Origin: Coriobacteriales bacterium
GTDB taxonomy: Bacteria > Actinomycetota > Coriobacteriia > Coriobacteriales > UMGS124
NCBI GenBank assembly: GCA_048173955.1
Contig: DBEYOB010000022.1
Location: forward strand, 7,048 to 71,047
Direction: 5' to 3'
DNA length: 64,000 bases
Shown here in pieces: positions 3,315 through 44,129 of this stretch. Each line of letters begins with the position of its first letter. Within the stretch, counting starts at the first letter, position 1. A program made the translations under genes and the position numbers. The notes beneath the pieces are model-generated. The model did not search any database and was not told where the DNA came from. It saw nothing but the letters and a program-made list of their open reading frames with translations.

Positions 3315-3589
3315 GAGCACTTGCTAAAAAGTCCTCTTGTTGAGTAAGCGGAGGGGCGGTTTTCGGGCCGCTGCGACATCAGGCGAAGATGAACCAGGGA
3401 ACGTGGCTTGGGAAAACCGCTGGTCAGATGGCTATGAACCGGTTTGAAAAGAGTGCGTGCTACATTTCGGTTGATACACAACCGCCCAAGGGTCTTCAAG
3501 CTTGCTCAGTAAGGCCACTTTTTCGCAAGTGCCCCTCTGTTTTCTGGAAGACAACCCGCAAAGATAGCGCCAAGTCGCGCAACGCTTCC
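3315..3589. repeat. Intergenic repeat family 2, copy A (35-bp inverted arms plus module M)
   Basis: Arms at 3315-3351 and 3499-3534 are inverted copies of AGCTTGCTCAGTAAGGCnnCTTTTTCnGCAAGTGCCC. Module M (3546-3589) matches 20461-20500 in the opposite orientation. The second copy is at 20233-20500. Confidence 0.7.
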
Positions 3590-3801: not shown

Positions 3802-4656
3802 ATGCTCATGATTTTTGCTTTTTCGGGCACTGGCAACAGCAGCTACGTTGCCCGCCGCATTGCGGAGGTTGCCGGACACCAGGTCCGCTCCATCAACGAC
3901 GCGCTTGCGGGCAGGGGGCTTGCGGCCATGCCTGCCTCGCCGATGGAGCCGCTGGTGTTCGTAGCGCCGACCTATGCCTGGCAGCTGCCCCATGTCGTGC
4001 GCGACTGGATTGAGCGCTCCGACTTCGGGGGAAAGGCCAAGACCTCTTCCCGCCGGGGCGAAGAACGCGGTCCGAGTTTGGCGAGCAGGGGCCATGGACC
4101 CGTGCGTGCGCAGGACGCGGGCAACTGGCGCGACGCCTACTTTGTCTTGACCTGCGGGGGAGAGATCGGCAACGCACCGGCGTCGATTGCGCGCCTGTGC
4201 AGACGCGCTGGCCTTGCGTATCGTGGCTGTGCGCAGATCGTCATGCCCGACAACTACATCGTCATGTTCGATCCTCCGACCGAGGAGGAGTCGCGCCGCA
4301 TCGTTGCCGACGCCGAACCGGCGATTCTCGAGGTTGCTGAGCGCATCCGCCGGGGCGACGATTTGATTCCGCCTCGCCCCGGGCTGGGCGACATCGTCAA
4401 AAGCGGGCCGGTGAACGCCCTGTTCAACGCTGTGTACATCAAGTCGGTGACGCCGTCGGCGACCGATGCGTGCACGGGTTGCGGCGCGTGCGTCAGGCTG
4501 TGTCCGCTCGGGAACATCCGTCTTGAGGCGGGCCGACCCGCATGGGGCAAGGCCTGCACGCACTGCATGGCGTGCGTGAGCGGCTGTCCGCAGGGGGCGG
4601 TCGAGTGCGGGAAGGGAACGCGGGGGAAGCGCCGGTATCGCTGCCCAGTTGGGTGA
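3802..4656 (+). CDS. EFR1-type flavodoxin-like / 2x[4Fe-4S] ferredoxin fusion protein
   Basis: The N-terminus MLMIFAFSGTGNSSYVARRIAE is a flavodoxin-like P-loop. The C-terminus has two CxxCxxCxxxCP motifs (CTGCGACVRLCP and CTHCMACVSGCP). RBS agagaggg lies upstream of the ATG at 3802. Confidence 0.8.
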   Translation: MLMIFAFSGTGNSSYVARRIAEVAGHQVRSINDALAGRGLAAMPASPMEPLVFVAPTYAWQLPHVVRDWIERSDFGGKAKTSSRRGEERGPSLASRGHGPVRAQDAGNWRDAYFVLTCGGEIGNAPASIARLCRRAGLAYRGCAQIVMPDNYIVMFDPPTEEESRRIVADAEPAILEVAERIRRGDDLIPPRPGLGDIVKSGPVNALFNAVYIKSVTPSATDACTGCGACVRLCPLGNIRLEAGRPAWGKACTHCMACVSGCPQGAVECGKGTRGKRRYRCPVG

Positions 4657-4719
4657 TGGCGGCGTGATGGGCGGCCGGCGGGCGCCCGTCACGATGGCTG
4701 GCGACCGCCGCTGAGACGT

Positions 4720-4839
4720 CTGTGCGGGCTGACGGCTGTCTAATTTCTGAAAAACTCTTAAGTCCAACATGCGTTGCCTGCAGTTTTGCCGACCAGCCTT
4801 CGGCTTGCTCGAAAGTTAGACACGTGTCAGCCCACATAG
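4720..4839. mobile_element. MITE-like element, family 3, copy 1 (120 bp)
   Basis: Left end is CTGTGCGGGCTGAC and right end is GTCAGCCCACATAG (12/14 inverted match). The first ~45 bp align with the copy at 29958-30079. No ORF is present. Confidence 0.6.
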
Positions 4840-4889
4840 CCGCAACGACCTGCGCGCAACGGTCCCGCTAGAATATCAACCCACAAAAC

Positions 4890-4940
4890 GTCGGACGAAA
4901 GTCACGGTTTGTGGGTCACATTCCGTGACTTTCGTCCGAC
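4890..4940 (-). terminator. Perfect 18-bp stem hairpin; likely intrinsic terminator of the minus-strand reductase gene
   Basis: gtcggacgaaagtcacgg-N15-ccgtgactttcgtccgac. On the minus strand the stem is followed by GTTTTGTGGG. It lies 150 bp downstream of the stop at 5094. Confidence 0.5.
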
Positions 4941-5093
4941 AACAGCGCGTCAACGGAGGGCCCGTGTCGCCCGATACGGCCTGGCGCGCAGGTCTGCACG
5001 TATCCAAACAGGCTGGGGGCGAGTCGACATCGGCCCGCCCCCAGCCATCACGTCCATTCGCCTAGATGTGCCCCTCGGTCACCTGGCGTTATT

Positions 5094-7085
5094 TTAGATC
5101 TCTTCGCCCAGGGCGACCTTGGCGGCAAGCCACCCGAACGTAGCGCTCTTGCCGCCGGCTGCTCCGGCGGTGATGTTGGGATAGGTGTCGCAGAAGTAAC
5201 GGCCTGCGTCATTGCCCACGCAATACAGGCCGTCGATTACGCTGCCGTCGGGACGCAGCGCCTGGAGCTTGGTGTTTACCACGATGCCGTCGAACGTGCA
5301 CAGGATGAGGCCCGAGATGTAGGCGCCGTAGAACGGGGGCTGCGTGTAGTCCTGCATGCGGAAGGACTCCTTGCCAAAGTCTTCGTCGACGCCCTTGGCG
5401 CACAGCTCGTTGTAACGCTCCACGGTGGCGACCAGGTTTTCGACAGGCAGTCCGAGCTGCTCGGCGAGCTCCTCGATGGTATCGGCGCATGCGAAGCAGT
5501 CGGGGTTGTCGATCATGAACTGACCGCGCTGCTCGGTGGTGTCTTCCTTCATGTACTCGACCTCGCCGTCCCACAGGGGCATGGGAACGCTGCGGGAGCA
5601 GCCGTCGGTGTCGTAGGCGAGGTTGTGCTCGTGGTAGTTGCCGGGGATGATCTCGACCATCACGCCACCCTTGCCGGCGATGGCGTGCAGGCGGTAGTCG
5701 TAGGGGCCGCTCTCGTTGCAGAAGCGCTCGCCGTTGAGGTCCACGGTGAGGAAGGGCTGGCTACCCATCCAGAATAGCTTGCTTGCGTCTTCCTCAAGTG
5801 CCTTCTGCACGTCGGTGGTGCCGATGGGCAGCGCCGCGCGCTCGAACAGCATACAGGCCGTCTTGTCGTCCTTGGCTGCCCCTGCCCACAGGCACGCCTT
5901 GATGCCGTCGCCCTGGTTGGTGATGGGTGCGCGCTCGCCGGCGTAGACCTTGGCGGCCTGGGGCTGCAGGGCGCGCATCATCTCGCGGTTGTGGGCATAG
6001 CCGCCCGTGGCCATGATGACGCCCTTTTCGGCGTTGATGCGGATGTGGTCACCGTCCTCGTTGGTAGCGTACACGCCGAGCACTTTGCCGGTCTCGTCCT
6101 GGACGAGTTCGACCATCGAGGTGTTGTAGCGAAACGTGCCGCCGTTCTCTTCGACGTAGGCCTCCACGACCTGGGCGGGGTCGAGGCCGAGATCCTTGTC
6201 GGCGAGCACCTCGTTGCACTCGATGAAGCCGGTGTAGCGCGCCTCCTCATGGTTGGCGTAGTTCATGAGGTGCGGGCGCAGTCCGGCCTGCTTGCACAGG
6301 TCGTCGTAGAAGTCGAAGATGGCGCCGCTCTTGTCGTACCACAGGTGGACGAGCTTGGGGTCGTTCCAGTAGTTGGAGTAGCGGCCGAAATCCTCGGTGA
6401 TCTCGTTGCGGTCGATGGCGATGCCGGCGCTCTGCTGAAGTTTCGTGTTGATGGCGCCCATCTGGTAGCGGATGCCCAGGCCCACGGCGGCCTTGTCGAT
6501 GATGAGCGGGCTCGCGCCGGACTGGACGGCGCTCATGGCGGCAAAGTGACCCGCGGTGCCCGAGCCCACGATGAGCAGCTCGCAGTCGACGACCTCGACG
6601 CAGTCCTCGTCGGTGATGACGGGCTTCTCGCCGAGCCAGGAGGGAACCTCGGGAGAGGCGGTGCCGGGGGTCGCAGAGGCGTCCTCGACGGGCGCCGCGG
6701 CGCCGGTCGAGGCCTGCTCGAGCGCTGAGGCCATGGCTTTCTTGGCGGCGCCCGAGGTGATGGTGGCGCCGCTCACGCCCTCGATGTCGTCGGAGCCTGC
6801 GGCGAGCAGCTGGGCCTGCAGCTCGTCCTGGGCTGCGGCGCCGATCTCGGCGGTCTCGCCCGAGGTGTCAACGACGATGTCGGAGATGACGCCGGAGTCG
6901 TCGACGGTGATCGTCACGGTCACGGCGCTCTCGAGACCGTCGGCCGAGCCGGTATAGGTGCCGGGGACCAGTGCCCCGGCGGCCTCGTCGGCAAACGCGT
7001 GGGTTCCGGCGGCGGCCATCAGGCCGGTGGCGGCCAGGGCTGCTCCGGCTCCCGCGATGAAGCTTCTGCGCGATACGTTCTCCAT
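5094..7085 (-). CDS. Tat-signal flavoprotein reductase: N-terminal FMN_bind domain plus fumarate-reductase/flavocytochrome-c-like FAD domain
   Basis: Start is MENVSRRSFIAGAGAALAATGLMAAAGTHAFA (twin-arginine signal). FMN_bind domain has flavinylation-type motif DIEGVSGATITS. Dinucleotide fold is LLIVGSGTAGHFAAMSA. C-terminal motifs IEELAEQLGLP..LVATVERYNELCAKGVDEDFGK are typical of this family. Confidence 0.9.
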   Translation of the reverse strand: MENVSRRSFIAGAGAALAATGLMAAAGTHAFADEAAGALVPGTYTGSADGLESAVTVTITVDDSGVISDIVVDTSGETAEIGAAAQDELQAQLLAAGSDDIEGVSGATITSGAAKKAMASALEQASTGAAAPVEDASATPGTASPEVPSWLGEKPVITDEDCVEVVDCELLIVGSGTAGHFAAMSAVQSGASPLIIDKAAVGLGIRYQMGAINTKLQQSAGIAIDRNEITEDFGRYSNYWNDPKLVHLWYDKSGAIFDFYDDLCKQAGLRPHLMNYANHEEARYTGFIECNEVLADKDLGLDPAQVVEAYVEENGGTFRYNTSMVELVQDETGKVLGVYATNEDGDHIRINAEKGVIMATGGYAHNREMMRALQPQAAKVYAGERAPITNQGDGIKACLWAGAAKDDKTACMLFERAALPIGTTDVQKALEEDASKLFWMGSQPFLTVDLNGERFCNESGPYDYRLHAIAGKGGVMVEIIPGNYHEHNLAYDTDGCSRSVPMPLWDGEVEYMKEDTTEQRGQFMIDNPDCFACADTIEELAEQLGLPVENLVATVERYNELCAKGVDEDFGKESFRMQDYTQPPFYGAYISGLILCTFDGIVVNTKLQALRPDGSVIDGLYCVGNDAGRYFCDTYPNITAGAAGGKSATFGWLAAKVALGEEI

Positions 7086-8821: not shown

Positions 8822-9195
8822 TCGGCTCCCCGTCAGCCCGTTAAATGGCCGTTTGGCTGCCAATTGCACGTTGCCGAAGAATTACCGGTGGTCAAACTTT
8901 GCCGCACGAATGACCGGCATTTTCCGTGGATGCGCATTCGACCGAAAGCCGACCGCCTCTCGCGCTTCCGCGTTTCTGCGCACCCCGCGCCGCCGTGTGC
9001 GTCCTGCCAGTTTGTCCCTGAAAACCGCGCGGTTTTGGGGAATCGCCCGGACGCGCCGTCTGCCGGCGCTATGGTGACGCTCGCGGTACGCATCGGGCCC
9101 GCACGATTCTTGCAACCGTACGGGCCCGACAGCGGGGGCGGCCCGGGACTTCCGGCCCCGCCTCTCCGCCTTTCGCTTTGCGCCTGCGGCGCCTC

Positions 9196-11682
9196 CTACA
9201 GCGCGCGGGCGACGAGGTTCGCGTTGGTCACGGCGCGCTGGATGTTCCAGGGCTCGGCGCAGTCGCCCACGGCGTGCACCTCATAGCCGGCCGCCGTCAG
9301 CTCGTCCGCCAGGGCGGTGTTCGCCACGACGTCGCAGCCCTCCACCACGGTGTCGCACGGCACGACGACCTCGGCGCCCGATGCATCGGTGATGGACAGG
9401 CCGCCATCCACCACGCCGTTGACCGTGGCGCTGTTGTAGACCTTGACGCCGTTCACCACGAGCTGGGCGAGCGCGTACTTGCGGATCCAGCCGGACTGCT
9501 GGGCGTCCAGGTCGTCGAACGTCGACCCGTGCACGAGCGCGACCTGCTTGCCCATGGCCTGCAGGCGCAGGGCCATGTCGGTCGCTTGCAGGCTGCCGCC
9601 CAGCAGCGCGACGCTGCCGCCGCAGCGGCACCCCGCTGCGCTCTCGAAGGGGATGACCTGCACGGCGTCGCTGCCTTCGAGCAGGCCTTCCTGGCGCGCG
9701 CCGCCGGTCGCCACGACGATGGCGTCGGGCGCGACGGAGGCGACCAGCCCGGCGTCGACCGCGGTGCCCGTCTCCACCGTCACGCCGGCGAGCTCGAGCT
9801 GGCGGGTCAGGTAGGCGCGGTAGTCCTCGAGGCGCTCGTGGTCGCCCTTGACGCCCTGGGCGAACGACAGGCTGCGCCCGAGCAGGGGCTGCGCCTCATA
9901 GAGGGTCACGCTGTGGCCGCGCTGCGCGGCGATGCGCGCGGCCTCCATGCCGGCGGGGCCGCCGCCAATCACCATGACGTTGCGGGGCGTCTCGGCGGGC
10001 ACCGGGTCGAAGCCCTCGGGCATCGCCTCGAGGTACGCGTGGCGCCAGGCGGCGCTGACGCGACACGACGAGGTGAACCTGCGGCTCGTGGATATGTTGT
10101 CGTGGCAGTGGAAGCAGCGCGTGCAAGGCATGGCCTCGTCGCGGCGGCCCTCCTGCAGCTTGTTGGGCAGCTCGGGGTCGACGTTGAGCGGGCGGTTCAT
10201 GTAGACCAGGTCGACCTTGCCGTCGGCCACGGCCTGGTTGATGAGGTCGGGCGCGGTGCGTGGGTCCATGTAGCCGGCGCAGCCCACGGGGACGCTCACG
10301 GCCTCCTTGATGGCGGTCGCCATGGGGATGAAGGCGCCCACGCCCGAGTGCGTCCCGTCCTCCAGCCCCTCGAAGGCGACGTCATAATCGAACAGGTGGC
10401 CGAAGCCGTCGACGCCGTCGGCGTGCCAGGCGAAGTGGTTGGTGTCGGGCGCCCAGCAGTTGGCCTCCTGGCCGGGGGTGCCCACGCGCACCTGGATGGC
10501 GTCGGTGCCCGCCGCCTCGAGGATTTGGGCGATCTGACGGGTCTCCTCGATGGAGAGGCAGGTCGGGTCGGTGCCGGGGGCGTTGTCGTACTCCTCGACG
10601 GCGTTGATGAGCGTCAGGACGACGAAGTCCTCGCCGCAGGCCTCCTTGACGGCGCGGATCATGTCGGTGAAGAACTTGCAACGGCTCTCGATGGTCTGGG
10701 GGCCGTACTCGTCTTCGCGCTGGTTCTTGCGGCGCGAGAGGAACGCGTTGAGGCCGTCCTGCGTGGCACCCTTGATCTCGATGGCGTCGCCGCCGGCCGC
10801 CTGGAAGCGCTGGGCAGCCGCCGCGACCTCGGCCACGTGGGCCTGGATGGTCTCGATGCTGTCCTCGTTCACGGTGGGCTCGCCGACCGGGCCGCCGTAG
10901 CTCACCTGCAGGCCGACGTAGGCGCCGCCCTGGTGGATGCGGTCGACGAGCGTCGCGGCGGTCGCGATGCCCTCCTCGACCGTCATGCCCTCGGCGGGAA
11001 CCTCGCCGGGCCCGATGCCCAGGTTGTCGAAGGCGCCGGCAAGCACGATCATGGCCACGCCGCCGTCGGCCATCTTGGCGTACAGGTCGAAGGCAACCGG
11101 GTTGATGCCCTCGTACTCGTCGGGCGACCAGGGGCTCGAGCCGGCCGACTTGATGATGCGGTTGCGCAGGGTGAGCGAGCCGATCTGGATGGGCTCGAAC
11201 AGGGCCGAGTAGTCGGTGGTGCAGGCGTCGTACGACTCGTCCTGCGGGGTGAGGGGCAGGTTGCGGAAGGCGTCCAGGCCGAGCGCCTGGAGCCAGCAGT
11301 CCTCGACGCCGTCGACGATGGCCTTGGTGCAAATGCTCGCGCCCGTGACGGCGTCGACTCCCTGGGTTCTGCCGGCCGCGGCGACGGCCTCGCAGTACGC
11401 GGCGCACGCGTCGGCAAGGGGGGTGAAGTAGTCGTTGTCCGACGTCTTGACGACCTTGTAGCCCACCGACGTCAGTTTGCCGTCCTCGAACGAGCAGGTG
11501 ACGACGACGTCGGCGTAGCCGGTGGTCTGGGCGCTCTCGTAGGTGCCCTGCGCCGCCCCGGAGGCTGCCGGCGCGGCCTCGTCGGCCACGGCGCTGTCCG
11601 CCCCGGCCGCAAGGGCCGACCCGATGACGCCGAGGGCCGCCGCCTTCACGAGGTTCCTGCGGGTAATCTCTGCAACTGCCAT
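9196..11682 (-). CDS. Tat-signal three-module flavoenzyme: FMN_bind + Old-Yellow-Enzyme/2,4-dienoyl-CoA-reductase-like TIM barrel with Cys cluster + FAD/NAD(P) Rossmann domain
   Basis: Start is MAVAEITRRNLVKAAALGVIGSALAAGA (RR signal, RBS aggagaaagg). FMN_bind motif is GVDAVTGASICT. OYE-like IQIGSLTLRNRIIKSAG. Cys cluster CTRCFHC-x13-C. Rossmann motif VMVIGGGPAGMEAARIAAQRGHSVTLYE. Confidence 0.88.
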   Translation of the reverse strand: MAVAEITRRNLVKAAALGVIGSALAAGADSAVADEAAPAASGAAQGTYESAQTTGYADVVVTCSFEDGKLTSVGYKVVKTSDNDYFTPLADACAAYCEAVAAAGRTQGVDAVTGASICTKAIVDGVEDCWLQALGLDAFRNLPLTPQDESYDACTTDYSALFEPIQIGSLTLRNRIIKSAGSSPWSPDEYEGINPVAFDLYAKMADGGVAMIVLAGAFDNLGIGPGEVPAEGMTVEEGIATAATLVDRIHQGGAYVGLQVSYGGPVGEPTVNEDSIETIQAHVAEVAAAAQRFQAAGGDAIEIKGATQDGLNAFLSRRKNQREDEYGPQTIESRCKFFTDMIRAVKEACGEDFVVLTLINAVEEYDNAPGTDPTCLSIEETRQIAQILEAAGTDAIQVRVGTPGQEANCWAPDTNHFAWHADGVDGFGHLFDYDVAFEGLEDGTHSGVGAFIPMATAIKEAVSVPVGCAGYMDPRTAPDLINQAVADGKVDLVYMNRPLNVDPELPNKLQEGRRDEAMPCTRCFHCHDNISTSRRFTSSCRVSAAWRHAYLEAMPEGFDPVPAETPRNVMVIGGGPAGMEAARIAAQRGHSVTLYEAQPLLGRSLSFAQGVKGDHERLEDYRAYLTRQLELAGVTVETGTAVDAGLVASVAPDAIVVATGGARQEGLLEGSDAVQVIPFESAAGCRCGGSVALLGGSLQATDMALRLQAMGKQVALVHGSTFDDLDAQQSGWIRKYALAQLVVNGVKVYNSATVNGVVDGGLSITDASGAEVVVPCDTVVEGCDVVANTALADELTAAGYEVHAVGDCAEPWNIQRAVTNANLVARAL

Positions 11683-22055: not shown

Positions 22056-22187
22056 GCGGTGGATGGGCGGAGAGGTAATGCCTTGTCTTTCAAGTCTGGG
22101 CTTATCGAACGCTCTGGGCCGAACTTCTGGCTTGCGCTATAGTGGTTCCCGCAAGACCCGGTACCGTCTCCGCCGGAGGAGGAGCCC

Positions 22188-22856
22188 ATGGCGCGCATCT
22201 ATGTGATTGAGGACGACGAGGCCGTGCGCGGCGAACTTGCCACGCTGTTGCGCCGCGCGGGCCACGAGCCCCTGTGCGCCGAACGGTTCGACCGCCTGGC
22301 GGCCGACGTGGAAGACGCCGCGCCCGACGTGGTCCTGCTCGACCTCGGGCTGCCGGGGACCGACGGTCTCTACGTCTGCCGCGAGCTTCGCCAGACCTCG
22401 AACGTGCCGATCATCGTGGTGACGAGCCGCACCACCGACCTCGACGAGCTCATGAGCATGTCGCTCGGAGCGGACGACTTCATCGCCAAGCCCTACAACG
22501 GCCAGGTGCTCCTTGCGCACATCGACGCCGTGCTGCGCCGTGCGCAGGGTGCCCAGGAACAGGGGCGCGTGGTCGAGTATCGGGGCCTTTCGCTCGACCT
22601 CGCCCGTTCCAAGGCGACCTACGAGGGACGTTCGGTCGAGCTCACCAAGAACGAGCTGCGCATCCTCGCCTTACTCATGCGCCGCAAGGGCGAGATCGTC
22701 TCGCGCGAGGACATCATGGTCGAGCTGTGGAACTCCGACACGTTCATCGACGACAACACGCTCACGGTGAACATGAACCGCCTGCGCAAGACGCTCGCGA
22801 GCATCGGGGTGACCGACTATCTCACCACCCATCGCGGCCAGGGGTACTCGGCCTAG
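22188..22856 (+). CDS. OmpR/BceR-type response regulator
   Basis: Receiver domain MARIYVIEDDEAVR...VVLLDLGLPGTDG...ADDFIAKP, followed by a winged-helix output domain (LTKNELRILALLMRRKGEIVSRE..YLTTHRGQGY). RBS ggaggagg. Confidence 0.92.
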   Translation: MARIYVIEDDEAVRGELATLLRRAGHEPLCAERFDRLAADVEDAAPDVVLLDLGLPGTDGLYVCRELRQTSNVPIIVVTSRTTDLDELMSMSLGADDFIAKPYNGQVLLAHIDAVLRRAQGAQEQGRVVEYRGLSLDLARSKATYEGRSVELTKNELRILALLMRRKGEIVSREDIMVELWNSDTFIDDNTLTVNMNRLRKTLASIGVTDYLTTHRGQGYSA

Positions 22857-22942: not shown

Positions 22943-23827
22943 CTACGCGATGCCGTAGTTGCGATACAGTTCTTCGCGCAGCTGCCTGTCGGTGGCGGCA
23001 CGTGCGACGTCGTCGGTCCTGCCGTCGGCGGCGAGCGCCGCTATCAGGCGCGACAGGCGTTCTTCACCCTGCTCGCGACCTTCGGCCAAGCCCTCGGCTC
23101 TTCCTTGCTCGAGGCCTTCTTCTCGCCCCTGCAGTACGCCGCGGTCGAAGTTCAGTTGGTCTCTGACCTGGAGCATCATGAATTCCAGCCTCCATTTCTG
23201 ATTGTCGAGCACCTCGGCAACCTCTTCCGCGAGCCGTGCGGAAAGACCCCCGGACACTTTGCCGGTAGCCACATAGTCGAGGAACTCGTTGAGGCGGTCG
23301 CCGGCTTGCTCTTGCCGGGGCGCGGTGGCGGAGAGGAAGATCGTCTTGCAGCCGTCGCCCAACCGAAGTCCCTCGACGTCCTGGCAGGTGTTCTCAAAGG
23401 AGTATACCCGCCGGCCGCACTTGAACGGGTCGAACCCGCAGACGAATATGACGTAGGAGTCTTTGAGACTCCGGTAGGGGAGGCCTTTGCCCAGCTGGTC
23501 GAGGGACATCAAGGCATGGTAGTAGCGCGAACGCTGGGGCAGCTCGCGGGTGTCGGTCGACTGCATCTCGACGTTGTAGACGGTCCCTGCCCCATCGCGC
23601 ACATAGACGTCGAGACGGATTCCCTTGCCTGCCGGCGAGGCGTCGAGATCCTCTTGGCGACCGATGTAGTCGATGCGCTCGATTGCCACGCCGAGCACTG
23701 CTTCGAGCACCTCGCGGCACAGGTCGGCGTTGAGCATGGCCTTGCAGAACACGAAGTCGTCTGCGATGGTGAGGTTTTCCCAACGTTCGTTTATCTTGCT
23801 GAGCACTTCCGGAATGGTGTCAGTCAT
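22943..23827 (-). CDS. Rpn-family recombination-promoting nuclease / PD-(D/E)XK putative transposase
   Basis: MTDTIPEVL..DDFVFCKAMLNADLCREVLEAVLG..IRLDVYVRDGAGTVYNVEMQSTDTRELPQRSRYYHA matches the PD-(D/E)XK core of the Rpn/YhgA-like family. The C-terminal EG/QG-rich repeat (QGREEGLEQGRAEGLAEGREQGEE) is typical. Confidence 0.75.
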   Translation of the reverse strand: MTDTIPEVLSKINERWENLTIADDFVFCKAMLNADLCREVLEAVLGVAIERIDYIGRQEDLDASPAGKGIRLDVYVRDGAGTVYNVEMQSTDTRELPQRSRYYHALMSLDQLGKGLPYRSLKDSYVIFVCGFDPFKCGRRVYSFENTCQDVEGLRLGDGCKTIFLSATAPRQEQAGDRLNEFLDYVATGKVSGGLSARLAEEVAEVLDNQKWRLEFMMLQVRDQLNFDRGVLQGREEGLEQGRAEGLAEGREQGEERLSRLIAALAADGRTDDVARAATDRQLREELYRNYGIA

Positions 23828-24153
23828 GAGATATCCCTCTTCTCTGAACGGGGGTGTGATTGAGCCAGCGGCCATGCATGGCACATCGGCGGGGTGTATA
23901 TGATGCTGAATCGAGGGTTTGCGATGACTCCTGCAGGATGTAGACAGTTTACGAACATTTGTTCTACTTTGCAAGAGTTCTCGACGATTTCGGGTTGTCA
24001 GAACTTCGCCGTGCACGCCTCCTTTACAATCATGCGGCAAGGGGCGCCCCGCATTGCGGCGACCGCTGGCCGGCATAGCCCAGCCTGGCCCGGTGCGGGC
24101 GACGCCTGCCTTTCGGATGGTTTCGGGCGGACCTCTCGGGGGAGGCGTGCGGC

Positions 24154-25308
24154 ATGAGCGTCTGGGCGTATCTGCGCGGCCATGTGCTTGCGGTGGCCAT
24201 TGCGCTGCTCACCGTGGGGCTGCTCTGGCCGATGCTGCGCCTGGTGGGTTTGGGCGGCGAGCTCGTGACCCTCATCGTGCTGTGCGTGGCGCTCGCCCTG
24301 CTCGCCATAGGCATCGCCAACTACCTGCATACGCGCGCGTGGTGCAGGCGGTTCGCCGAGGTCGCGCGGGCGGGCGGCGACGCTCCCGAGCTTGCCCTGT
24401 CGATGGAGGAGCCCGACGCCCCCGAGGCCCAGGTCGTCTTCGAGGCGCTGCAAGCCGTGGCGACCGAGGCCAACGCCCGCGTCTCCGACTCGCGGCTGCG
24501 CGAGCGCGAACACCGCGAGTTCGTGGAGACGTGGGTGCACGAGGTCAAGACCCCGCTCGCCGCCATCGACCTCATGCTCGAGAACCTTGACGACGCGCGC
24601 CTCGCCCCGCTCGCCCGCGAACTCGACCGCGTGGGGTCGCTCGTGGAACAGGCGCTCTACTTCGCCCGCTCCTCTTCGGTCGAGAGCGACTACCTGGTGC
24701 GCACATGCACGCTCGAGGCGCTCGTGCGCGGGGCGGTCAAGTCGCGCGCCCACGCCCTCGTCGGGGCGCATGTTGCCGTGGGTATGGAGGGGCTCGACCG
24801 CACGGTCTTCGCCGACCTCAAGTGGATGCAGTTCGTGCTGGGCCAGCTCATCGACAACGCGGTGCGCTACCGGCGCGACCCTGCTTGCCCTGCCGGCGGC
24901 GACGCCCCCGCCGACTCTGCCGACCCCGCTGCCTGCGACGCCGAAGCCGCGGGCGGTGCCGCCGCGGACGGGCCGCGCATCGACTTTTCGGCGCGCGCGC
25001 TCGACGAGGGGCGCGCCGACGAGCGCGTAGTGCTGAGCGTGCGCGACAACGGGTGCGGCATCTCGGCCGCCGACATCGGCCGGGTGTTCGACAAAGGCTT
25101 CACGGGGAGCAACGGCCGCGTCTACGCCAAGTCGACCGGCATCGGCCTCTACCTCGTGCGCTCCCTGTGCGAAAAGATGGGCCTCTCGGTGAGCGCGTCG
25201 AGCGTCGAAGGGGAGTGGACGTGCTTCGAGATCGTCTTCCCCACCAACCGGATGAAGGTGTTCGGCGACGACGCTACGGCGTCCCTCGGCGGGGGGCGCA
25301 TCCTGTGA
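24154..25308 (+). CDS. BceS-like intramembrane-sensing histidine kinase
   Basis: Two N-terminal TM helices with almost no external loop. H-box is EFVETWVHEVKTPLAAIDL. ATPase motifs are QLIDNAVRY, VRDNGCGI and GIGLYLV. RBS gggggagg. Confidence 0.9.
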   Translation: MSVWAYLRGHVLAVAIALLTVGLLWPMLRLVGLGGELVTLIVLCVALALLAIGIANYLHTRAWCRRFAEVARAGGDAPELALSMEEPDAPEAQVVFEALQAVATEANARVSDSRLREREHREFVETWVHEVKTPLAAIDLMLENLDDARLAPLARELDRVGSLVEQALYFARSSSVESDYLVRTCTLEALVRGAVKSRAHALVGAHVAVGMEGLDRTVFADLKWMQFVLGQLIDNAVRYRRDPACPAGGDAPADSADPAACDAEAAGGAAADGPRIDFSARALDEGRADERVVLSVRDNGCGISAADIGRVFDKGFTGSNGRVYAKSTGIGLYLVRSLCEKMGLSVSASSVEGEWTCFEIVFPTNRMKVFGDDATASLGGGRIL

Positions 25309-26750
25309 TCACCTACGACCTCGACCGGCGTGCGCCTCACCAGCCCAAGTACGAGTATCTCTACCGCTGCATCCGCACGGACATCCGCGCGGGGACGCTG
25401 CCGCCCGGCATGCGCCTCCCCTCGAAGCGCGCGCTCGCCGAGCACCTCGCCGTGAGCGTGAGCACCATCGAGCACGCGTACGACACGCTCGCGAGCGAGG
25501 GGTACGTCGAGGCGCGCCCGGGCAGCGGGTTCTACGTCGCGGCACACCAGGAGGCGGGCTCCGCCGCTCCCGCGGACGACGAGGGGCGCTCGCCCGGGTG
25601 CGGGGAGCAGGCGGGGGAGGACCGTGCTTCCGATACGATCGACTTCAAGGCCAACTGGTGCAGCATGAGCCTGTTCCCGGCGGAGACGTGGGCGCGCATG
25701 ATGCGCAAGGTGCTCTCCGACCGCAGCCCCGAGCTGTTCGAGACGGTCCCCTTCAACGGCCTGTGCGAACTCAGGAGCGCCATTGCGGGCTACCTCTACG
25801 AGTTCAAGGGCATCAGGACGACGCCCGACAACATCGTGGTGGGCGCGGGGACCGAGTACCTCTACGGTAAGCTATTGCAGCTGTTCGGCCCCAACGCCGT
25901 CATTGCGATCGGCGACCCCGGTTACAAGAAGCTCGCCGACATCTCGCGCAACTCGGGCGTGCTGTGGGACTACATCCCGCTCGACAGCGAGGGCCCCGAC
26001 GTGCGTCGGCTCGCCGCGGGCGGCGCCGACGCGGTGCACGTCTCGCCGGCGAATATCTTCCCCACGGGCATCGTCATGACGGCGGAGCGGCGCGCCGAGA
26101 TGCTTGCGTGGCTTCACGCCCGGCCGGGCCGTTACCTCATCGAGGACGACTACGACAGCGAGCTGCGCTTTTCGGGGCGCGCCCTACCCACCCTGTTCAC
26201 GCAGGACGCCTCGGGCGGGGTCGTGTACCTCAACACGTTCTCCAAGACGCTCGTGCCGTCGTTGCGCATCTCGTACATGGTGCTGCCCGACACCCTCATG
26301 GAGCTCTACCGCAGCCAGCTCAGCTTCTATTCGTGCACGGTGTCGAGCTTCGAGCAGCTCGCGCTGGCGCGGTTCATCTCGGAGGGGCATTTCGAGCGGC
26401 ACATCAACCGCCTGCGCCGCTACTACGGCCGGCAGCGCGCCGTGGCGATCGAGGCGTTCGAGACGTCGCCCCTCGCCTCCGTTGCCGAGGTGAAGGCACC
26501 CGACGTGGGCACCCACCTGCTTCTTGCGGTGCGCACGGGCATGTCGGACGACGCCGTGAAGCGCGAGGCGCGCCGCCGGGGCATGAACCTGGCGATGCTC
26601 TCGGACTATTGCGTGCACCCCGTGGCGCGCTATGCCCACAACGTGGTGGTGAACTTTGCCAGCATCGAGCCGGAGCGCCTGCAGCGCGCGGTCGACCTGC
26701 TCGCTGACGTCTTTCGGGGCGACATCGAGCGTGCGGGCCGCAGCACCTGA
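25305..26750 (+). CDS. MocR/GabR-type regulator (GntR wHTH fused to PLP-dependent aminotransferase-fold domain)
   Basis: The GTG start overlaps the kinase stop (GTGA). N-terminal YEYLYRCIRTDIRAGTLPPGMRLPSKRALAEHLAVSVSTIEHAYDTLASEGYVEARPGSGFYV is a GntR HTH. The remainder is aminotransferase fold I, including YLNTFSKTLVPSLRISYMV with the PLP lysine. Confidence 0.88.
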   Translation: MITYDLDRRAPHQPKYEYLYRCIRTDIRAGTLPPGMRLPSKRALAEHLAVSVSTIEHAYDTLASEGYVEARPGSGFYVAAHQEAGSAAPADDEGRSPGCGEQAGEDRASDTIDFKANWCSMSLFPAETWARMMRKVLSDRSPELFETVPFNGLCELRSAIAGYLYEFKGIRTTPDNIVVGAGTEYLYGKLLQLFGPNAVIAIGDPGYKKLADISRNSGVLWDYIPLDSEGPDVRRLAAGGADAVHVSPANIFPTGIVMTAERRAEMLAWLHARPGRYLIEDDYDSELRFSGRALPTLFTQDASGGVVYLNTFSKTLVPSLRISYMVLPDTLMELYRSQLSFYSCTVSSFEQLALARFISEGHFERHINRLRRYYGRQRAVAIEAFETSPLASVAEVKAPDVGTHLLLAVRTGMSDDAVKREARRRGMNLAMLSDYCVHPVARYAHNVVVNFASIEPERLQRAVDLLADVFRGDIERAGRST

Positions 26751-26886
26751 TTTGCGGCCCGCCGGCCGTGGGGTTCCCGCTGGTCGCGAGGTGCCGGTCG
26801 CACGGGGGCACCGCGGGTGCTGGCCGAGAGGGCACCCGCTGTCTGTGCGGGCGTCCGCTGGCTGCTTGGGAATCCGCCAGCCGCGC

Positions 26887-27220
26887 GGTCGTTTTGGCGC
26901 TGAGTGCGTGTTTCTGGAAAAGTGTTGGTCATTTCGCCAGCGAGTGCATGCTGATTTGAAGGCTCTGCCAGAGCCACGAATCGCGTGCATCCTCCCTACC
27001 TGGCCATTTACGTACATGGTTCGGGAAGGGGCGGCGCGCGGTGCCGGTTTCCGCATGCACTCACTGGCTATATGACCAACAGTTTTCCCAAAGCACGCAC
27101 TCGGCGCTTATTTGACCATGCCCGCCGCCCAAACCACGCATTCGGCACCTGTTTGACCGCTCTCGCCACCCGTGTCCCATCGCCCGCCGCCCAAACCACG
27201 CACTCGGCGCCCGTTTGACC
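26887..27220. repeat. Intergenic repeat family 1, copy A: 2 forward and 4 reverse 24-bp units facing each other
   Basis: The unit is GGTCAwww-N5-6-CnGAGTGCRTG. Forward units are at 26887 and 26927 (spacer TTTCTGGAAAAGTGTT). Reverse units are at 27054-27077, 27094-27117, 27135-27158 and 27197-27220. The central segment is 103 bp. Confidence 0.8.
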
Positions 27221-27530: not shown

Positions 27531-29015
<1,485 letters not shown>

Positions 29016-30079: not shown

Positions 30080-30339
30080 CCGAAATTACCCCGCCCCGCT
30101 GCCCGCAGCCGGCCCGCCCCGCTGCCCGCCCGCGGCCTCCCTTACACAACTGCAAGCCGCCGGCAAGCTCCTTCGATGGCACGCCGCGCCCCGTACGGGC
30201 ATTCTGGTAGGCGTACGATGGCATCCGTTTGGCGCCCGCCCGGCCGTCTGGACCGCCCGTCTGGCCGTCCGGACCGCCGGACTCGTCCGTCCGGGGCGCG
30301 AGGCAGGTGCGGGGCCTGCGATACGAAGGGAGACCGCCC

Positions 30340-41924: not shown

Positions 41925-42920
41925 ATGGATGCGGAAAGGAGCGCGGTGGCCATGGCGGCAGCGCGTGCAGCGGGACCGGGGGCGGGTATGGCGGGGCCGA
42001 AAGCCGGCGCGACGGGGCAGGGGGCGGGCGCAGCCGGCGGCAGGCGCCGCGTCCCCGGGGTCGCCCTCATGTTCGAGGGCGGCGGGATGCGGGCGAGCTA
42101 TACGTCGGCCGTGGTCGCGACCCTCGTCGAGCAGCGCATCGACTTCGAGTTCGTGTGCGGGCTGTCGGCGGGGGCGAGCAACTCGGTCAACTACCTGTCG
42201 GGCGACGCGCCCCGCGCCCGCCGGAGCTTCGTCGACCTGGTGCGCGAGCCCGAGTTCGGCGACTGGCGCACGTTCGTGCGGGGCAAAGGGCTCTTCTCGG
42301 CCGCGTGGATCTATCAGGAGACGGGCAAGCCCGAGGGCGTCCTGCCCTTCGACATGGATGCCTTTCTGGGCAACCCCGCCGGACTCGCCATCCAGGCGTT
42401 CGACCGCGACAGCGGCGAGACGGTCGTGTGGCGCAAGGAGGATATGCCCACGCTCGACGACGTGATGGTGCGCGTCCGGGCGAGCAGCACCCTGCCGGTT
42501 GTGATGCCCCCGGTCACCATCGACGGACGCACCTTCTACGACGGTGGGCTCGGCTGCGGCGGCGGCATCCCGCTGCAGCTCGCGCTCGACGCCGGTTACA
42601 CCCGCGTGTTCGCCGTGCTCACCCGGCCGCGCGGCTACCGCAAGGGCGCCCCGAACGCGATGGCGCGGGCGGTGGCGAACCTCTACCGGCGCTATCCCAA
42701 GGTTCGCGAGGCCCTGCTTACCCGGTTCGAGCGGTACAACGCCGAGCTCGACCGGCTCGAGGCCATGGCGGAGCGGGGCGATGCCTGCATCGTCTACGCC
42801 GACAAGATGGCCGTGCAGAACAACACGACCGACTACGACGCCCTCGTGCGCAGCTACGAGGACGGCTACGCGCAGGCCCAGGCCGAGCTCCCACGCTGGC
42901 TGGAGTGGCTCGGCGCATAG
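41925..42920 (+). CDS. Patatin-like phospholipase
   Basis: Oxyanion motif is FEGGGMRASY, nucleophile elbow is GLSAGAS, and the Asp of the dyad lies in FYDGGLG. The N-terminus is a roughly 45-aa Ala/Gly-rich extension. It starts 10 nt after the MFS stop. Confidence 0.85.
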   Translation: MDAERSAVAMAAARAAGPGAGMAGPKAGATGQGAGAAGGRRRVPGVALMFEGGGMRASYTSAVVATLVEQRIDFEFVCGLSAGASNSVNYLSGDAPRARRSFVDLVREPEFGDWRTFVRGKGLFSAAWIYQETGKPEGVLPFDMDAFLGNPAGLAIQAFDRDSGETVVWRKEDMPTLDDVMVRVRASSTLPVVMPPVTIDGRTFYDGGLGCGGGIPLQLALDAGYTRVFAVLTRPRGYRKGAPNAMARAVANLYRRYPKVREALLTRFERYNAELDRLEAMAERGDACIVYADKMAVQNNTTDYDALVRSYEDGYAQAQAELPRWLEWLGA

Positions 42921-42966
42921 GGGAGGGGCGCGGGAGCTGCGCCGGCGGCGGTGGGGCGGGGCCGAT

Positions 42967-43290
42967 GGCCAAAAAGCGCCCGATTGCGTGCCCGGGGGCC
43001 GGAGGGCGGTCAAAACAGGCTCGAGTGCGTGCGCGTGGGCTGGAGGGCGGTCAAAACAAGCCCGAGTGCGTGATTCTAGAAAAGTGTTGGTCATTTGAAC
43101 GGCGAGTGTATGCGGCGAAGGGGCTTTGGGCGACACGTGCCTTTTTAGTCGACAAGGAAAGGCCAGGTAGAACGTTTGCCCGTGAGGTCATCGCTTCGAC
43201 GGGTGGCGCCGGGTCGCCTCAATTGGCACGCACTCGTTGGTTTATTGACCACTACTTTTCTAGAAACATACATTCGCCGGGAAAATGACC
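42967..43290. repeat. Intergenic repeat family 1, copy B: 4 forward and 2 reverse 24-bp units (mirror image of copy A)
   Basis: Forward units are at 42967, 43008, 43049 and 43089 (period 41, 41, 40 bp). Reverse units are at 43227-43250 and 43267-43290. Spacer TTCTAGAAAAGTGTT is conserved with copy A. The central segment is 114 bp. Confidence 0.8.
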
Positions 43291-43574
43291 GCCCCGCCGC
43301 CTGCACCCCGCCGCCCGCCATCGCTCTGCCTGCCGCCAGACCGCCCCGCCACCCCGCCGCGCCACCCACCGACCCCCGCGCTGTCGCGTCCTTCCATGAC
43401 CCTCGACGTGCGCGCGGTCGATGGAAAGGGTCGGCGCAATTGCGGCGCATCCGTTCCTAGGCGTATAGTGAATCCGTGTGAACCGCCGCCGCATCGCCGC
43501 CGCGCCGCGTTCTGTGCCGGGGTCGACAACACGGCCAGCCGCACTGCGGCCTGTCAAATCGAGGAGACTTTCGC

Positions 43575-44129
43575 ATGCGCATCGCCATCGCTTCCGACCA
43601 CGCCGGGTTCGACCAGAAGACCGAGCTTGTACCGTTCCTCCAGGGGTTGGGCCACGAGGTGGTCGATCTGGGGCCCGAGACGGGCGACCGCGTCGACTAC
43701 CCCGACTACGCCGAGAAGGTCGCTCGGGCGGTTGCCGCCGGCGAGGCCGACCGCGGCGTGCTGATCTGCGGCACGGGCATCGGCATGGCGGTTGCGGCGG
43801 ACAAGGTGGCGGGCATCCGCGCCGTCAACATCACCTCGCCCGAGTTCGCCGAGCTCGCCCGCCGTCACAACGACGCCAACGTCATCACGCTCTCGGGGCG
43901 CTTCGTCTCGCTCGAGGAGAACGAGCGCATCCTCAAGGTGTTCCTCGTTGCCGAGTTCGAGGGCGGCCGCCATGCCCAGCGCGTCGCGAAGATCATGGCG
44001 CTCGACCTGTCGGGCAAGCGCTCCGCGGCGACGGCGCCCCGCGTGACCCCCATGCGCTCGACGCTGGCCGAGAGCCTCAACGCCGCCGTCGAGGCGAAGC
44101 TGGGCCCGGTCGACGCCCAGCAGAACTGA
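43575..44129 (+). CDS. rpiB: Ribose-5-phosphate isomerase B
   Basis: [15 protein letters not shown]...[23 protein letters not shown]...[13 protein letters not shown]. It has a C-terminal extension of about 35 aa. RBS gaggaga. Confidence 0.92.

Follow-up and report, generated by a model that had tools for sequence, protein, structure and literature searches.

What are the facing arrays of a short repeated sequence that lie between a regulator gene and an aldehyde dehydrogenase gene in a chromosome of the Coriobacteriales? The window, that is, the whole stretch of 64,000 nucleotides analysed here (contig DBEYOB010000022.1, positions 7,048 to 71,047), contains two such elements, element A with arrays at 26887–27220 and element B with arrays at 42967–43290. 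An earlier note, made from the sequence alone, had offered three readings: iterons, a landing pad for a transcription factor, and a structured non-autonomous element. The third fits the dispersal to further loci, the lineage-specific gains, the polymorphism between strains and the occurrence in both orientations; the first two are not supported. [quoted passage not shown] That the family is, or recently was, mobile is well supported.

Units and architecture of elements A and B

Six copies of the 24-bp unit are present in A, two on the plus strand (starting at 26887 and 26927) and four on the minus strand (27054, 27094, 27135 and 27197), with start-to-start spacings of 40 bp on the short arm and of 40, 41 and 62 bp on the long arm, as the earlier note had it. 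The conserved spacer that it described was also recovered, as TTTCTGGAAAAGTGTT between the outer and inner units of the left arm and as the counterpart CTTTGGGAAAACTGTT, on the unit strand, in the right arm. B is indeed the mirror image, with four forward and two reverse units at 42967–43290, and aligns over its full length, centre included, with the reverse complement of A.

The pattern GGTCA-N10-GAGTGCRTG matched 10 times in the window at no more than one mismatch, compared to 0.05 expected, and none of 100 dinucleotide-preserving shuffles reached 10 matches. At up to three mismatches there were 24 matches against 15.4 expected, a surplus at noise level. A profile of the unit returned exactly 12 matches with E ≤ 0.04, all of them within 26887–27220 or 42967–43290, and Tandem Repeats Finder independently reported a 41-bp period at 42978–43072. 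Among the checkable statements of the earlier note only one failed: the degenerate fragments placed near 3448–3470 and 8899–8925 were not significant with the unit profile (best E = 2.3) or with a whole-element profile. That the phasing puts the units on a similar face of the helix holds only approximately, the period of 40–41 bp corresponding to about 3.8–3.9 helical turns. The features of the two elements are as follows.

26753–26765, no strand: left flanking direct repeat of A, TGCGGCCCGCCGG, with CGCCG at 26760–26764; repeat spacing 488, matching the 489 bp between the B pentamers
26766–26886, plus: GC-rich outer flank of A, short-arm side; strain-variable in the alignment
26887–26910, plus: unit, short arm of A, outer, GGTCGTTTTGGCGCTGAGTGCGTG (unit profile)
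26911–26926, plus: leader/spacer TTTCTGGAAAAGTGTT of A, with the near-palindrome TTTC-NN-GAAA; most other strains read TTTCCGGAAA
26927–26950, plus: unit, short arm of A, inner, GGTCATTTCGCCAGCGAGTGCATG (unit profile)
26951–27053, plus: centre of A, 103 nt, with a small hairpin and the family-wide motif CCCTACCTGGCCATTTACG at 26994–27012
27054–27077, minus: unit, long arm of A, inner, GGTCATATAGCCAGTGAGTGCATG (unit profile)
27078–27093, minus: leader/spacer, long arm of A, CTTTGGGAAAACTGTT on the unit strand; within a 58-nt inverted repeat, 84% complementary
27094–27117, minus: unit, long arm of A, second (unit profile)
27135–27158, minus: unit, long arm of A, third (unit profile)
27197–27220, minus: unit, long arm of A, fourth (outer); spacing 62, but 83 in strain L023
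27241–27253, no strand: right flanking direct repeat of A, TGCCGCCCGCCGG
42943–42947, no strand: left copy of the duplicated pentamer CGGCG at B; single in the sister-species empty site (L036)
42948–42966, plus: G-rich flank of B, long-arm side; hypervariable in length among strains
42967–43112, plus: long arm of B, units at 42967, 43008, 43049 and 43089 (spacings 41, 41, 40)
43073–43088, plus: leader ATTCTAGAAAAGTGTT in the long arm of B
43113–43226, minus: centre of B, 114 nt; family motif GGAAAGGCCAGGTAGA on the minus strand at 43156–43171
43227–43290, minus: short arm of B, units at 43227 and 43267 (spacing 40), leader between
43291–43431, plus: C-rich low-complexity flank of B, short-arm side; absent from the sister species
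43432–43436, no strand: right copy of the pentamer CGGCG at B; conserved rpiB promoter region next

Among the 31 confident units, G1, G2, C4, A17, T19 and G20 are invariant. Positions 6–9 form an A/T tract of either polarity (AAAA or TTTT) and positions 9–14 are nearly free, giving a layout of a GGTC box, an A/T tract, about six free bases and a CGAGTGCGTG box. The unit is bipartite and non-palindromic, the A/T tract between its two sequence-specific boxes probably being read by its shape, and has the footprint that would be expected of a single protomer with two DNA-binding subdomains. The unit cores are near-invariant among copies whose spacers are essentially randomised.

Adjacent units lie 39–41 bp apart in 20 of 24 cases, and in six of six element versions (A, B and the versions C, D, D' and E described below) an arm of two units opposes an arm of three or four. 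The 16-nt leader between outer and inner unit, which carries the palindrome TTTC-NN-GAAA, is kept on all four arms of A and B. A and the reverse complement of B align end to end, including the central motif TCTACCTGGCC-TTTMC, with 57% identity over the aligned columns. The core common to the elements thus reads unit, leader, unit; a centre of about 100–125 bp with the fixed motif; and again unit, leader, unit. One or two further tandem 41-bp repeats, each a unit with a G-rich spacer, are added on one side only. In A, B and C, 41–43 nt separate the family motif from the inner unit of the long arm (counted by eye). Conservation peaks at the inner units, leaders and central motif and falls outward, the lowest scores being those of the outermost units. 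The outer long-arm units are closer to one another within an element than to their counterparts in other copies, indicating that the arrays grow and shrink locally as 41-bp tandem repeats.

The elements, of about 0.4–0.5 kb, are longer than their arrays: the DNA gained at B comprises 42948–43431, or 484 bp. Their outer edges are GC-rich, of low complexity and decaying. The G-rich flank of B is 19 nt long in the window and about 60–100 nt in other strains, and the C-rich flank holds a 13-bp tandem repeat (43333–43367); its edges apparently grow by simple-sequence expansion. The outer flank on the short-arm side of A is probably part of the inserted DNA as well, by analogy with the 141-nt flank that B has and the sister species lacks.

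Gains, dispersal and strain variation

At locus B, the gap between the patatin-like gene and rpiB measures 125 bp in the sister species (L036/L037, RpiB 93% identical), compared to 655 bp in the window, and more distant relatives have only 78–154 bp upstream of rpiB. The empty site is defined to the base. It reads ...gccgcgc[CGGCG]cgattgcgg... in the sister species, whereas the occupied site in the window reads ...gctgcgc[CGGCG], 484 bp, [CGGCG]caattgcgg..., followed by the conserved rpiB promoter. At locus A, the gap between the MocR-type gene and the aldehyde dehydrogenase gene is 153 bp in the relative L044 (dehydrogenase 86% identical), compared to 780 bp in the window; L044 is the only relative recovered for this locus, and the divergence of its intergenic DNA prevents an exact definition of the boundaries of A. 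The flanks of A read TGCGGCC-CGCCG-G and TGCCGCC-CGCCG-G and lie 488 bp apart, the pentamer copies at B 489 bp apart. A and B point in opposite directions, so that the pentamer common to both is CGGCG when read along the element itself. Both elements start within 2–22 nt of the stop of the preceding gene and finish before the promoter that follows. By these comparisons, A and B are each an independent lineage-specific gain.

Further copies were found outside the window. A metagenome scan with a pattern of leader plus inner unit returned copy C (L030), with two forward and four reverse units at 40–41 bp, upstream of a LysR-type gene. The contigs of 1.56 Mb and 1.77 Mb that carry element B also encode proteins in the 90%-identity cluster of this LysR, which places copy C in the same species. 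Six longer loci around the C-linked LysR gene yielded two more copies, D between the genes for a flavin reductase and a CitMHS transporter, and E between two convergent LuxR genes. D is flanked by the 9-bp repeat ATAATCGCG, with copies 418 bp apart (read from the sequence).

In total, at least five copies occur in about 77 kb of the host species, and none in about 77 kb from five related species; given the size of the host sample, the copy counts are lower bounds. The five copies occupy five unrelated intergenic loci in both orientations relative to the neighbouring genes, and the flanks of A and B are unrelated. The identity between C and D is 84% in total and about 95% in the short arm and centre, and C, D and E form a young subfamily. 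A and B are 48–57% identical to each other and to the other copies outside the conserved blocks; they are two old, diverged copies of a dispersed non-coding repeat that appears to be confined to one uncultured species of the Coriobacteriia.

These copies bear directly on the possibility, raised in the earlier note, that the two loci are a segmental duplication of one intergenic region within the window with no further copies. Two inverted copies 16 kb apart in 64 kb would fit such an event. The three additional copies at unrelated loci of the same genome refute it; the 57% identity of A and B outside the conserved blocks, their unrelated flanks and their independent gains speak against it as well.

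A further set of candidates comprises an iteron-type replication origin, a plasmid-style centromere and a promoter inverton flipped by a site-specific recombinase. There is a superficial likeness in the direct repeats of about 24 bp, in the facing arrays around a short centre and in a promoter-like match in B (TTGACC-18-TACATT, 43245–43274). That match occurs in B only, no rep, par or recombinase gene adjoins any of the five copies, and at least five copies are carried on one chromosome. Iterons are spaced about 22 bp apart, unlike the 40–41 bp period observed here. These explanations are very improbable. For the inverton, the centre was found in one orientation in 17 of 17 assemblies, although consensus assemblies would hide minority orientations, and that candidate was rejected.

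Against a landing pad specific to a gene stand the functionally unrelated neighbours of the copies and, at rpiB, an ancestral promoter that lies outside the element. An operator for the MocR-type regulator was rejected in the same way, B, C, D and E not lying beside MocR genes. The resemblance of GCACTC/GAGTGC to the CIRCE/HrcA system was set aside for wrong arrangement and distance.

Between strains, A and B were both present in every close strain sampled. An insertion polymorphism, which the earlier note had proposed to look for, was found for copy C, which is present in L047, L048 and L051 and absent from L046, L049 and L050. The haplotype lacking C carries a different upstream segment, and homology resumes at TGCAG, 4 nt past the last unit of C. 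C thus lies at the exact edge of a strain-variable segment (L046–L051, about 5240–5905). In one haplotype there are type I-C cas genes, a MerR gene and a reductase gene on the minus strand, and in the other, which holds element C, two LuxR genes and a reductase gene on the plus strand. About 3 kb from the site lacking C, at 807–2735 of L050, are a stand-alone gene for a Y1 transposase (807–1220; IS200/IS605 or RAYT type) and one for an ISL3 transposase; no units were found around either gene.

The arrays themselves also vary. Depending on the strain, the long arm of B has three or four units and the outermost units of A are spaced at 62 or 83 bp; the lengths of the GC-rich flanks differ too. 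In one strain (L012, 4066–5387), an insertion sequence (IS) of the IS3 family, with ends TGAGCTGT...ACAGCTCA and a 3-bp GTG duplication, lies in the G-rich flank of B. In another (L013, about 4190–5510), an IS3-family copy sits directly against the inner unit (GG|TCATTTG), and the genes upstream have been replaced. These two cases indicate that the element is a target of IS elements and a point of rearrangement. In the D' allele (L048/L051, about 9460–9690), about 230 bp of additional AT-rich sequence adjoin the element on its right.

Several contigs assembled from short reads stop within A or B (starts of L016, L017 and L025–L027), and a scaffold gap of 100 N lies inside element D (L047, 9160–9259). 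The elements are hard to assemble, owing to hairpin formation, GC-rich sequence or repeat copies.

A mobile element and the competing explanations

No coding signal was detected: GC content is even over the codon positions, and stops interrupt all six frames of A. Like a MITE, the elements are under about 600 bp, non-coding and dispersed, with occupied and empty sites. As genomic objects they come closest to the modular MITE-like repeats, namely the pneumococcal BOX element (boxA-boxB(n)-boxC) and BrickBuilt of Porphyromonas gingivalis, the latter a MITE with a 23-nt minisatellite (PMC4596501; review PMC10969869). In common with both, they are small, non-coding, species-restricted, intergenic and multi-copy, contain a tandem module of variable copy number, can form a stable hairpin and have no known autonomous partner. 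In contrast to both, the module here is a 24-bp bipartite box with a 16–17 bp spacer (41-bp period) that is present on both arms in opposite orientation; conservation is highest in the centre and inner units rather than in short terminal inverted repeats; and the host is actinobacterial (Coriobacteriia). The elements also resemble the REP/BIME/REPIN sequences of Proteobacteria in being dispersed intergenic inverted pairs with variable tandem arrays (BIME-2) that act as hot spots for IS elements. The REP unit, however, is a palindromic hairpin tied to a RAYT gene, whereas the unit here is non-palindromic and bipartite.

The arrangement of the arms is reminiscent of transposon ends. In systems of the Mu, Tn7, Tn402–Tn5053 and IS21 type, a DDE transposase works with an AAA+ partner. 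As at the ends of Mu, Tn7, Tn402 and IS21-type elements, each arm here carries several repeats of about 20–25 bp, the arms are inverted and the number of sites is asymmetric. A 5-bp duplication, as in the Mu, Tn7 and Tn402 types, was seen at B, the sole insertion with an empty site, the repeats at A and D being longer. When the Tn402 ends of R751 were read directly, the terminal repeats were TGTCGTTTTCAGAAGACGGCTGCAC and TGTCATTTTCAGAAGACGACTGCAC, with two abutting copies at one end and copies at 1–25 and 71–94 at the other, plus apparent inverted copies. The unit resembles the 25-bp terminal repeat of Tn402 (GTCATTT...CGAsTGCA) at about 17 of 24 positions by hand count. By analogy with these ends, the units probably bind a transposase or recombinase acting in trans, and the element may work like the ends of Mu, Tn7 or Tn402, a likeness that does not establish membership of those groups. 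Tn402 was kept as an analogy only, the layout being different and the TG..CA termini missing.

The analysis shows the anatomy, the dispersal, the gains in this lineage, the polymorphism within the species, the lack of a coding signal and the variable number of units; that proteins bind the units, which enzyme of which class does so and how the element moves are inferred. A transposase or recombinase encoded elsewhere would bind one protomer per unit, the 40–41 bp phasing would allow the protomers on one arm to cooperate, and the two oppositely oriented arms would be joined into a paired complex. Insertion of the element into intergenic DNA, by copying or by transfer, would then leave a short duplication. 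Later on, units would be gained or lost by slippage or unequal exchange, and the elements would become hot spots for IS insertion and rearrangement.

Several observations weigh against this mobile-element reading. No autonomous partner or candidate transposase was found in the window, the fetched loci, the viral contigs or the plasmid records; the genes with rve domains that were seen belong to IS3-family insertion sequences with their own ends. A scan of species-representative genomes with a two-unit pattern gave nine matches, about the number estimated for chance. The host species itself was not matched in that scan, which consequently understates the distribution of the family. Terminal inverted repeats, typical of MITEs, are also missing at the boundaries: from the empty site, B starts with GCGG and ends with GGGT, not with TG..CA, and neither of its ends (GCGGTGGGG... 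and ...GGAAAGGGT) is an inverted copy of the other. The inverted repeat of 58 nt lies in the interior, and the best-conserved part is the middle rather than the ends, the reverse of a classical MITE. The flanking repeats are of unequal length, 5 bp at B, where the empty site backs it, and 9–13 bp at A and 9 bp at D, where there is no empty site. They lie in GC-rich DNA, in which an all-GC 5-mer recurs by chance in a 25-nt window 12% of the time, and gain or loss mediated by microhomology would look the same as target duplication. As for the likeness to transposon ends, the regular direct phasing at 40–41 bp differs from the abutting, mixed-orientation repeats of Tn402. Further differences from the Mu, Tn7 and Tn402 types are the absence of TG..CA termini, the failure to find a gene of the tniA, tnsB or istA type, the position of the arrays 19–141 bp inside the inserted DNA and the whole length of only about 0.5 kb.

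Searches for a catalogued relative, the second alternative raised by the earlier note, were negative in Rfam, plasmid records, viral contigs and the literature. Rfam 15 gave no match at its gathering thresholds, and a permissive search returned only a chance microRNA match (E = 0.76) in the flank of A at 26806–26867, outside the arrays, and nothing in C. A distant blastn search of plasmid records with element A found no match, and four patterns run against viral contigs gave nothing real. The literature search turned up no such element described for Coriobacteriia, and the text of a 2024 review of prokaryotic MITEs does not mention Actinobacteria (PMC10969869). The one match of interest in the species-representative genomes is a single good unit, GGTCAATCGGGCGGCGAGTGCGTG (15.8 bits), at 2529–2573 of a Coriobacteriaceae metagenome-assembled genome (MAG; L007), followed 16 nt on by a GGTCA that lacks the second box; this unit may be a remnant of the element family in another lineage, or chance.

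A different explanation is that the arrays, whatever their origin, now serve the host, being bound by a DNA-binding protein such as a nucleoid-associated factor, a roadblock or insulator separating neighbouring transcription units, or a domesticated transposase, and being maintained for this role. Within the species, 7 of 156 positions in the unit cores are polymorphic, compared to 62 of 481 in the N10 and spacers (p = 0.003) and 91 of 764 in the surrounding intergenic DNA (p = 0.004). Maintenance by the host would fit this lower polymorphism, the near-invariance of the cores between copies with randomised spacers and the intergenic position of all five copies, with A and B between an upstream stop codon and the next promoter; the leader palindrome TTTC-NN-GAAA could bind a second, dimeric factor. 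When four-fold degenerate sites of the flanking genes were used as the reference, however, core polymorphism was not lower (4.5% against 6.6%, 56/854; p = 0.37). The spacers turned out to be the outliers, being hypervariable relative to these sites (p = 1e-4), and the apparent depletion of about three-fold in the cores was not borne out with this reference and speaks clearly neither for nor against constraint. In addition, unit number, outermost spacing and the presence of C vary by strain, orientation to the neighbours is inconsistent and the neighbours are functionally unrelated, and related species manage without elements at the same loci. We consider a host-serving role unlikely.

Selection may instead act on RNA or DNA structure, either a long imperfect hairpin that the 58-nt inverted repeat would form in transcripts reading through from the upstream gene (attracting RNase III, terminating or insulating transcription, or stabilising the RNA) or a cruciform extruded from the DNA. 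A structural role of this kind has been proposed for the Correia, ERIC and BOX elements. The predicted folds, at −144.9 kcal/mol for A (z = −10.8) and −116.3 kcal/mol for B (z = −7.2), are far more stable than those of shuffled controls; such z-scores, however, come from any long inverted repeat. Pairing is kept through changes on both sides in 15 of 62 consensus pairs, including the leader columns 62/256 and 68/250, but the co-varying pairs fall in the leader palindrome and stem from no more than three independent lineages. At the centre of A, the small hairpin (26961–26975) reads GGCTCTG-C-CAGAGCC in the window and GGCTCCG-C-CGGAGTC in other strains, so that both sides have changed and pairing is kept, with one G-U. 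The breaks of several short-read contigs and one scaffold inside the elements would also fit a stable structure. On the other hand, the N10 stretches of facing inner units match at only 5–7 of 10 positions (by eye) and are closer to the same position in other copies, and the third and fourth long-arm units keep their boxes without a pairing partner, which argues against hairpin pairing as the constraint. There is no terminator-like site in A and no Rfam match. Selected structure is a doubtful explanation.

More speculatively, instead of being the remnant of a cut-and-paste transposon of the classical kind, the element could be a self-contained assembly platform for a DNA-binding machine that is peculiar to the lineage and has so far escaped recognition. 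On it, a putative recombinase or domesticated transposase would polymerise along the phased sites, with a second dimeric factor at TTTC-NN-GAAA and the fixed central motif, either moving the element without terminal inverted repeats or shuffling the cassettes of LuxR or LysR and reductase genes that differ among strains at these very positions. We regard this as improbable, if worth stating. A related candidate, an attP-like site with a CGGCG core and arm-type sites in a circular form, was dropped, the sequences next to the pentamer not being conserved between A and B (by eye).

Genomic surroundings and meaning of the family

The window is ordinary chromosome. By the homologues of its RpiB the host belongs among uncultured Coriobacteriia, and the nearest named relatives, Collinsella and Coriobacterium, are only about 70% identical. 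As the earlier note had stated, A lies between a MocR-type GntR/aminotransferase regulator gene (25305–26750) and an aldehyde dehydrogenase gene (27531–29015). The dehydrogenase has homologues 80–81% identical in MAGs of Clostridia/Bacillota, its nearest relatives outside the species being 86% identical, and the MocR–dehydrogenase pair may, on sequence similarity, have been horizontally transferred.

A two-component system also lies near A. Between A and B are ABC/FtsX transporter genes, LuxR-type regulators and flavin reductases, and C-rich tandem repeats are found at 30090–30137 and 30233–30294 (periods 11–23 and 21) near the start of an ABC-transporter ATPase gene. Around B are the patatin-like gene (ending at 42920), rpiB (43575–44129), upp, cdd and the ATP synthase operon.

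There is no DDE transposase gene in the window, the only mobile-element-like gene being an open reading frame of the PDDEXK_2 type (Rpn/YhgA-type 'transposase') at 22943–24076 on the minus strand. It lies on the opposite strand between a response regulator gene (22143–22856) and a histidine kinase gene (24154–25308), which look like one two-component pair, and it is kept in related strains.

Modular MITE-like repeats are already known, and the present family is best described as new species-restricted MITE-like intergenic elements. Its build is unusual, with a bipartite site phased at 40–41 bp on two facing arms, a conserved centre and decaying edges. Bacterial genomes are shaped by small dispersed repeats, which provide promoters, terminators and RNase sites, give rise to rearrangements and distinguish strains, and the Coriobacteriia are a gut lineage known for the metabolism of drugs and diet. 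The elements border cassettes of reductase and regulator genes that vary among strains, and IS elements insert there too. They account for contig breaks in short-read assemblies of the host organism, and the variation in unit number is a ready marker for strain typing. If the binding protein is found, it would reveal either a new architecture of transposase ends or a new factor organising the chromosome.

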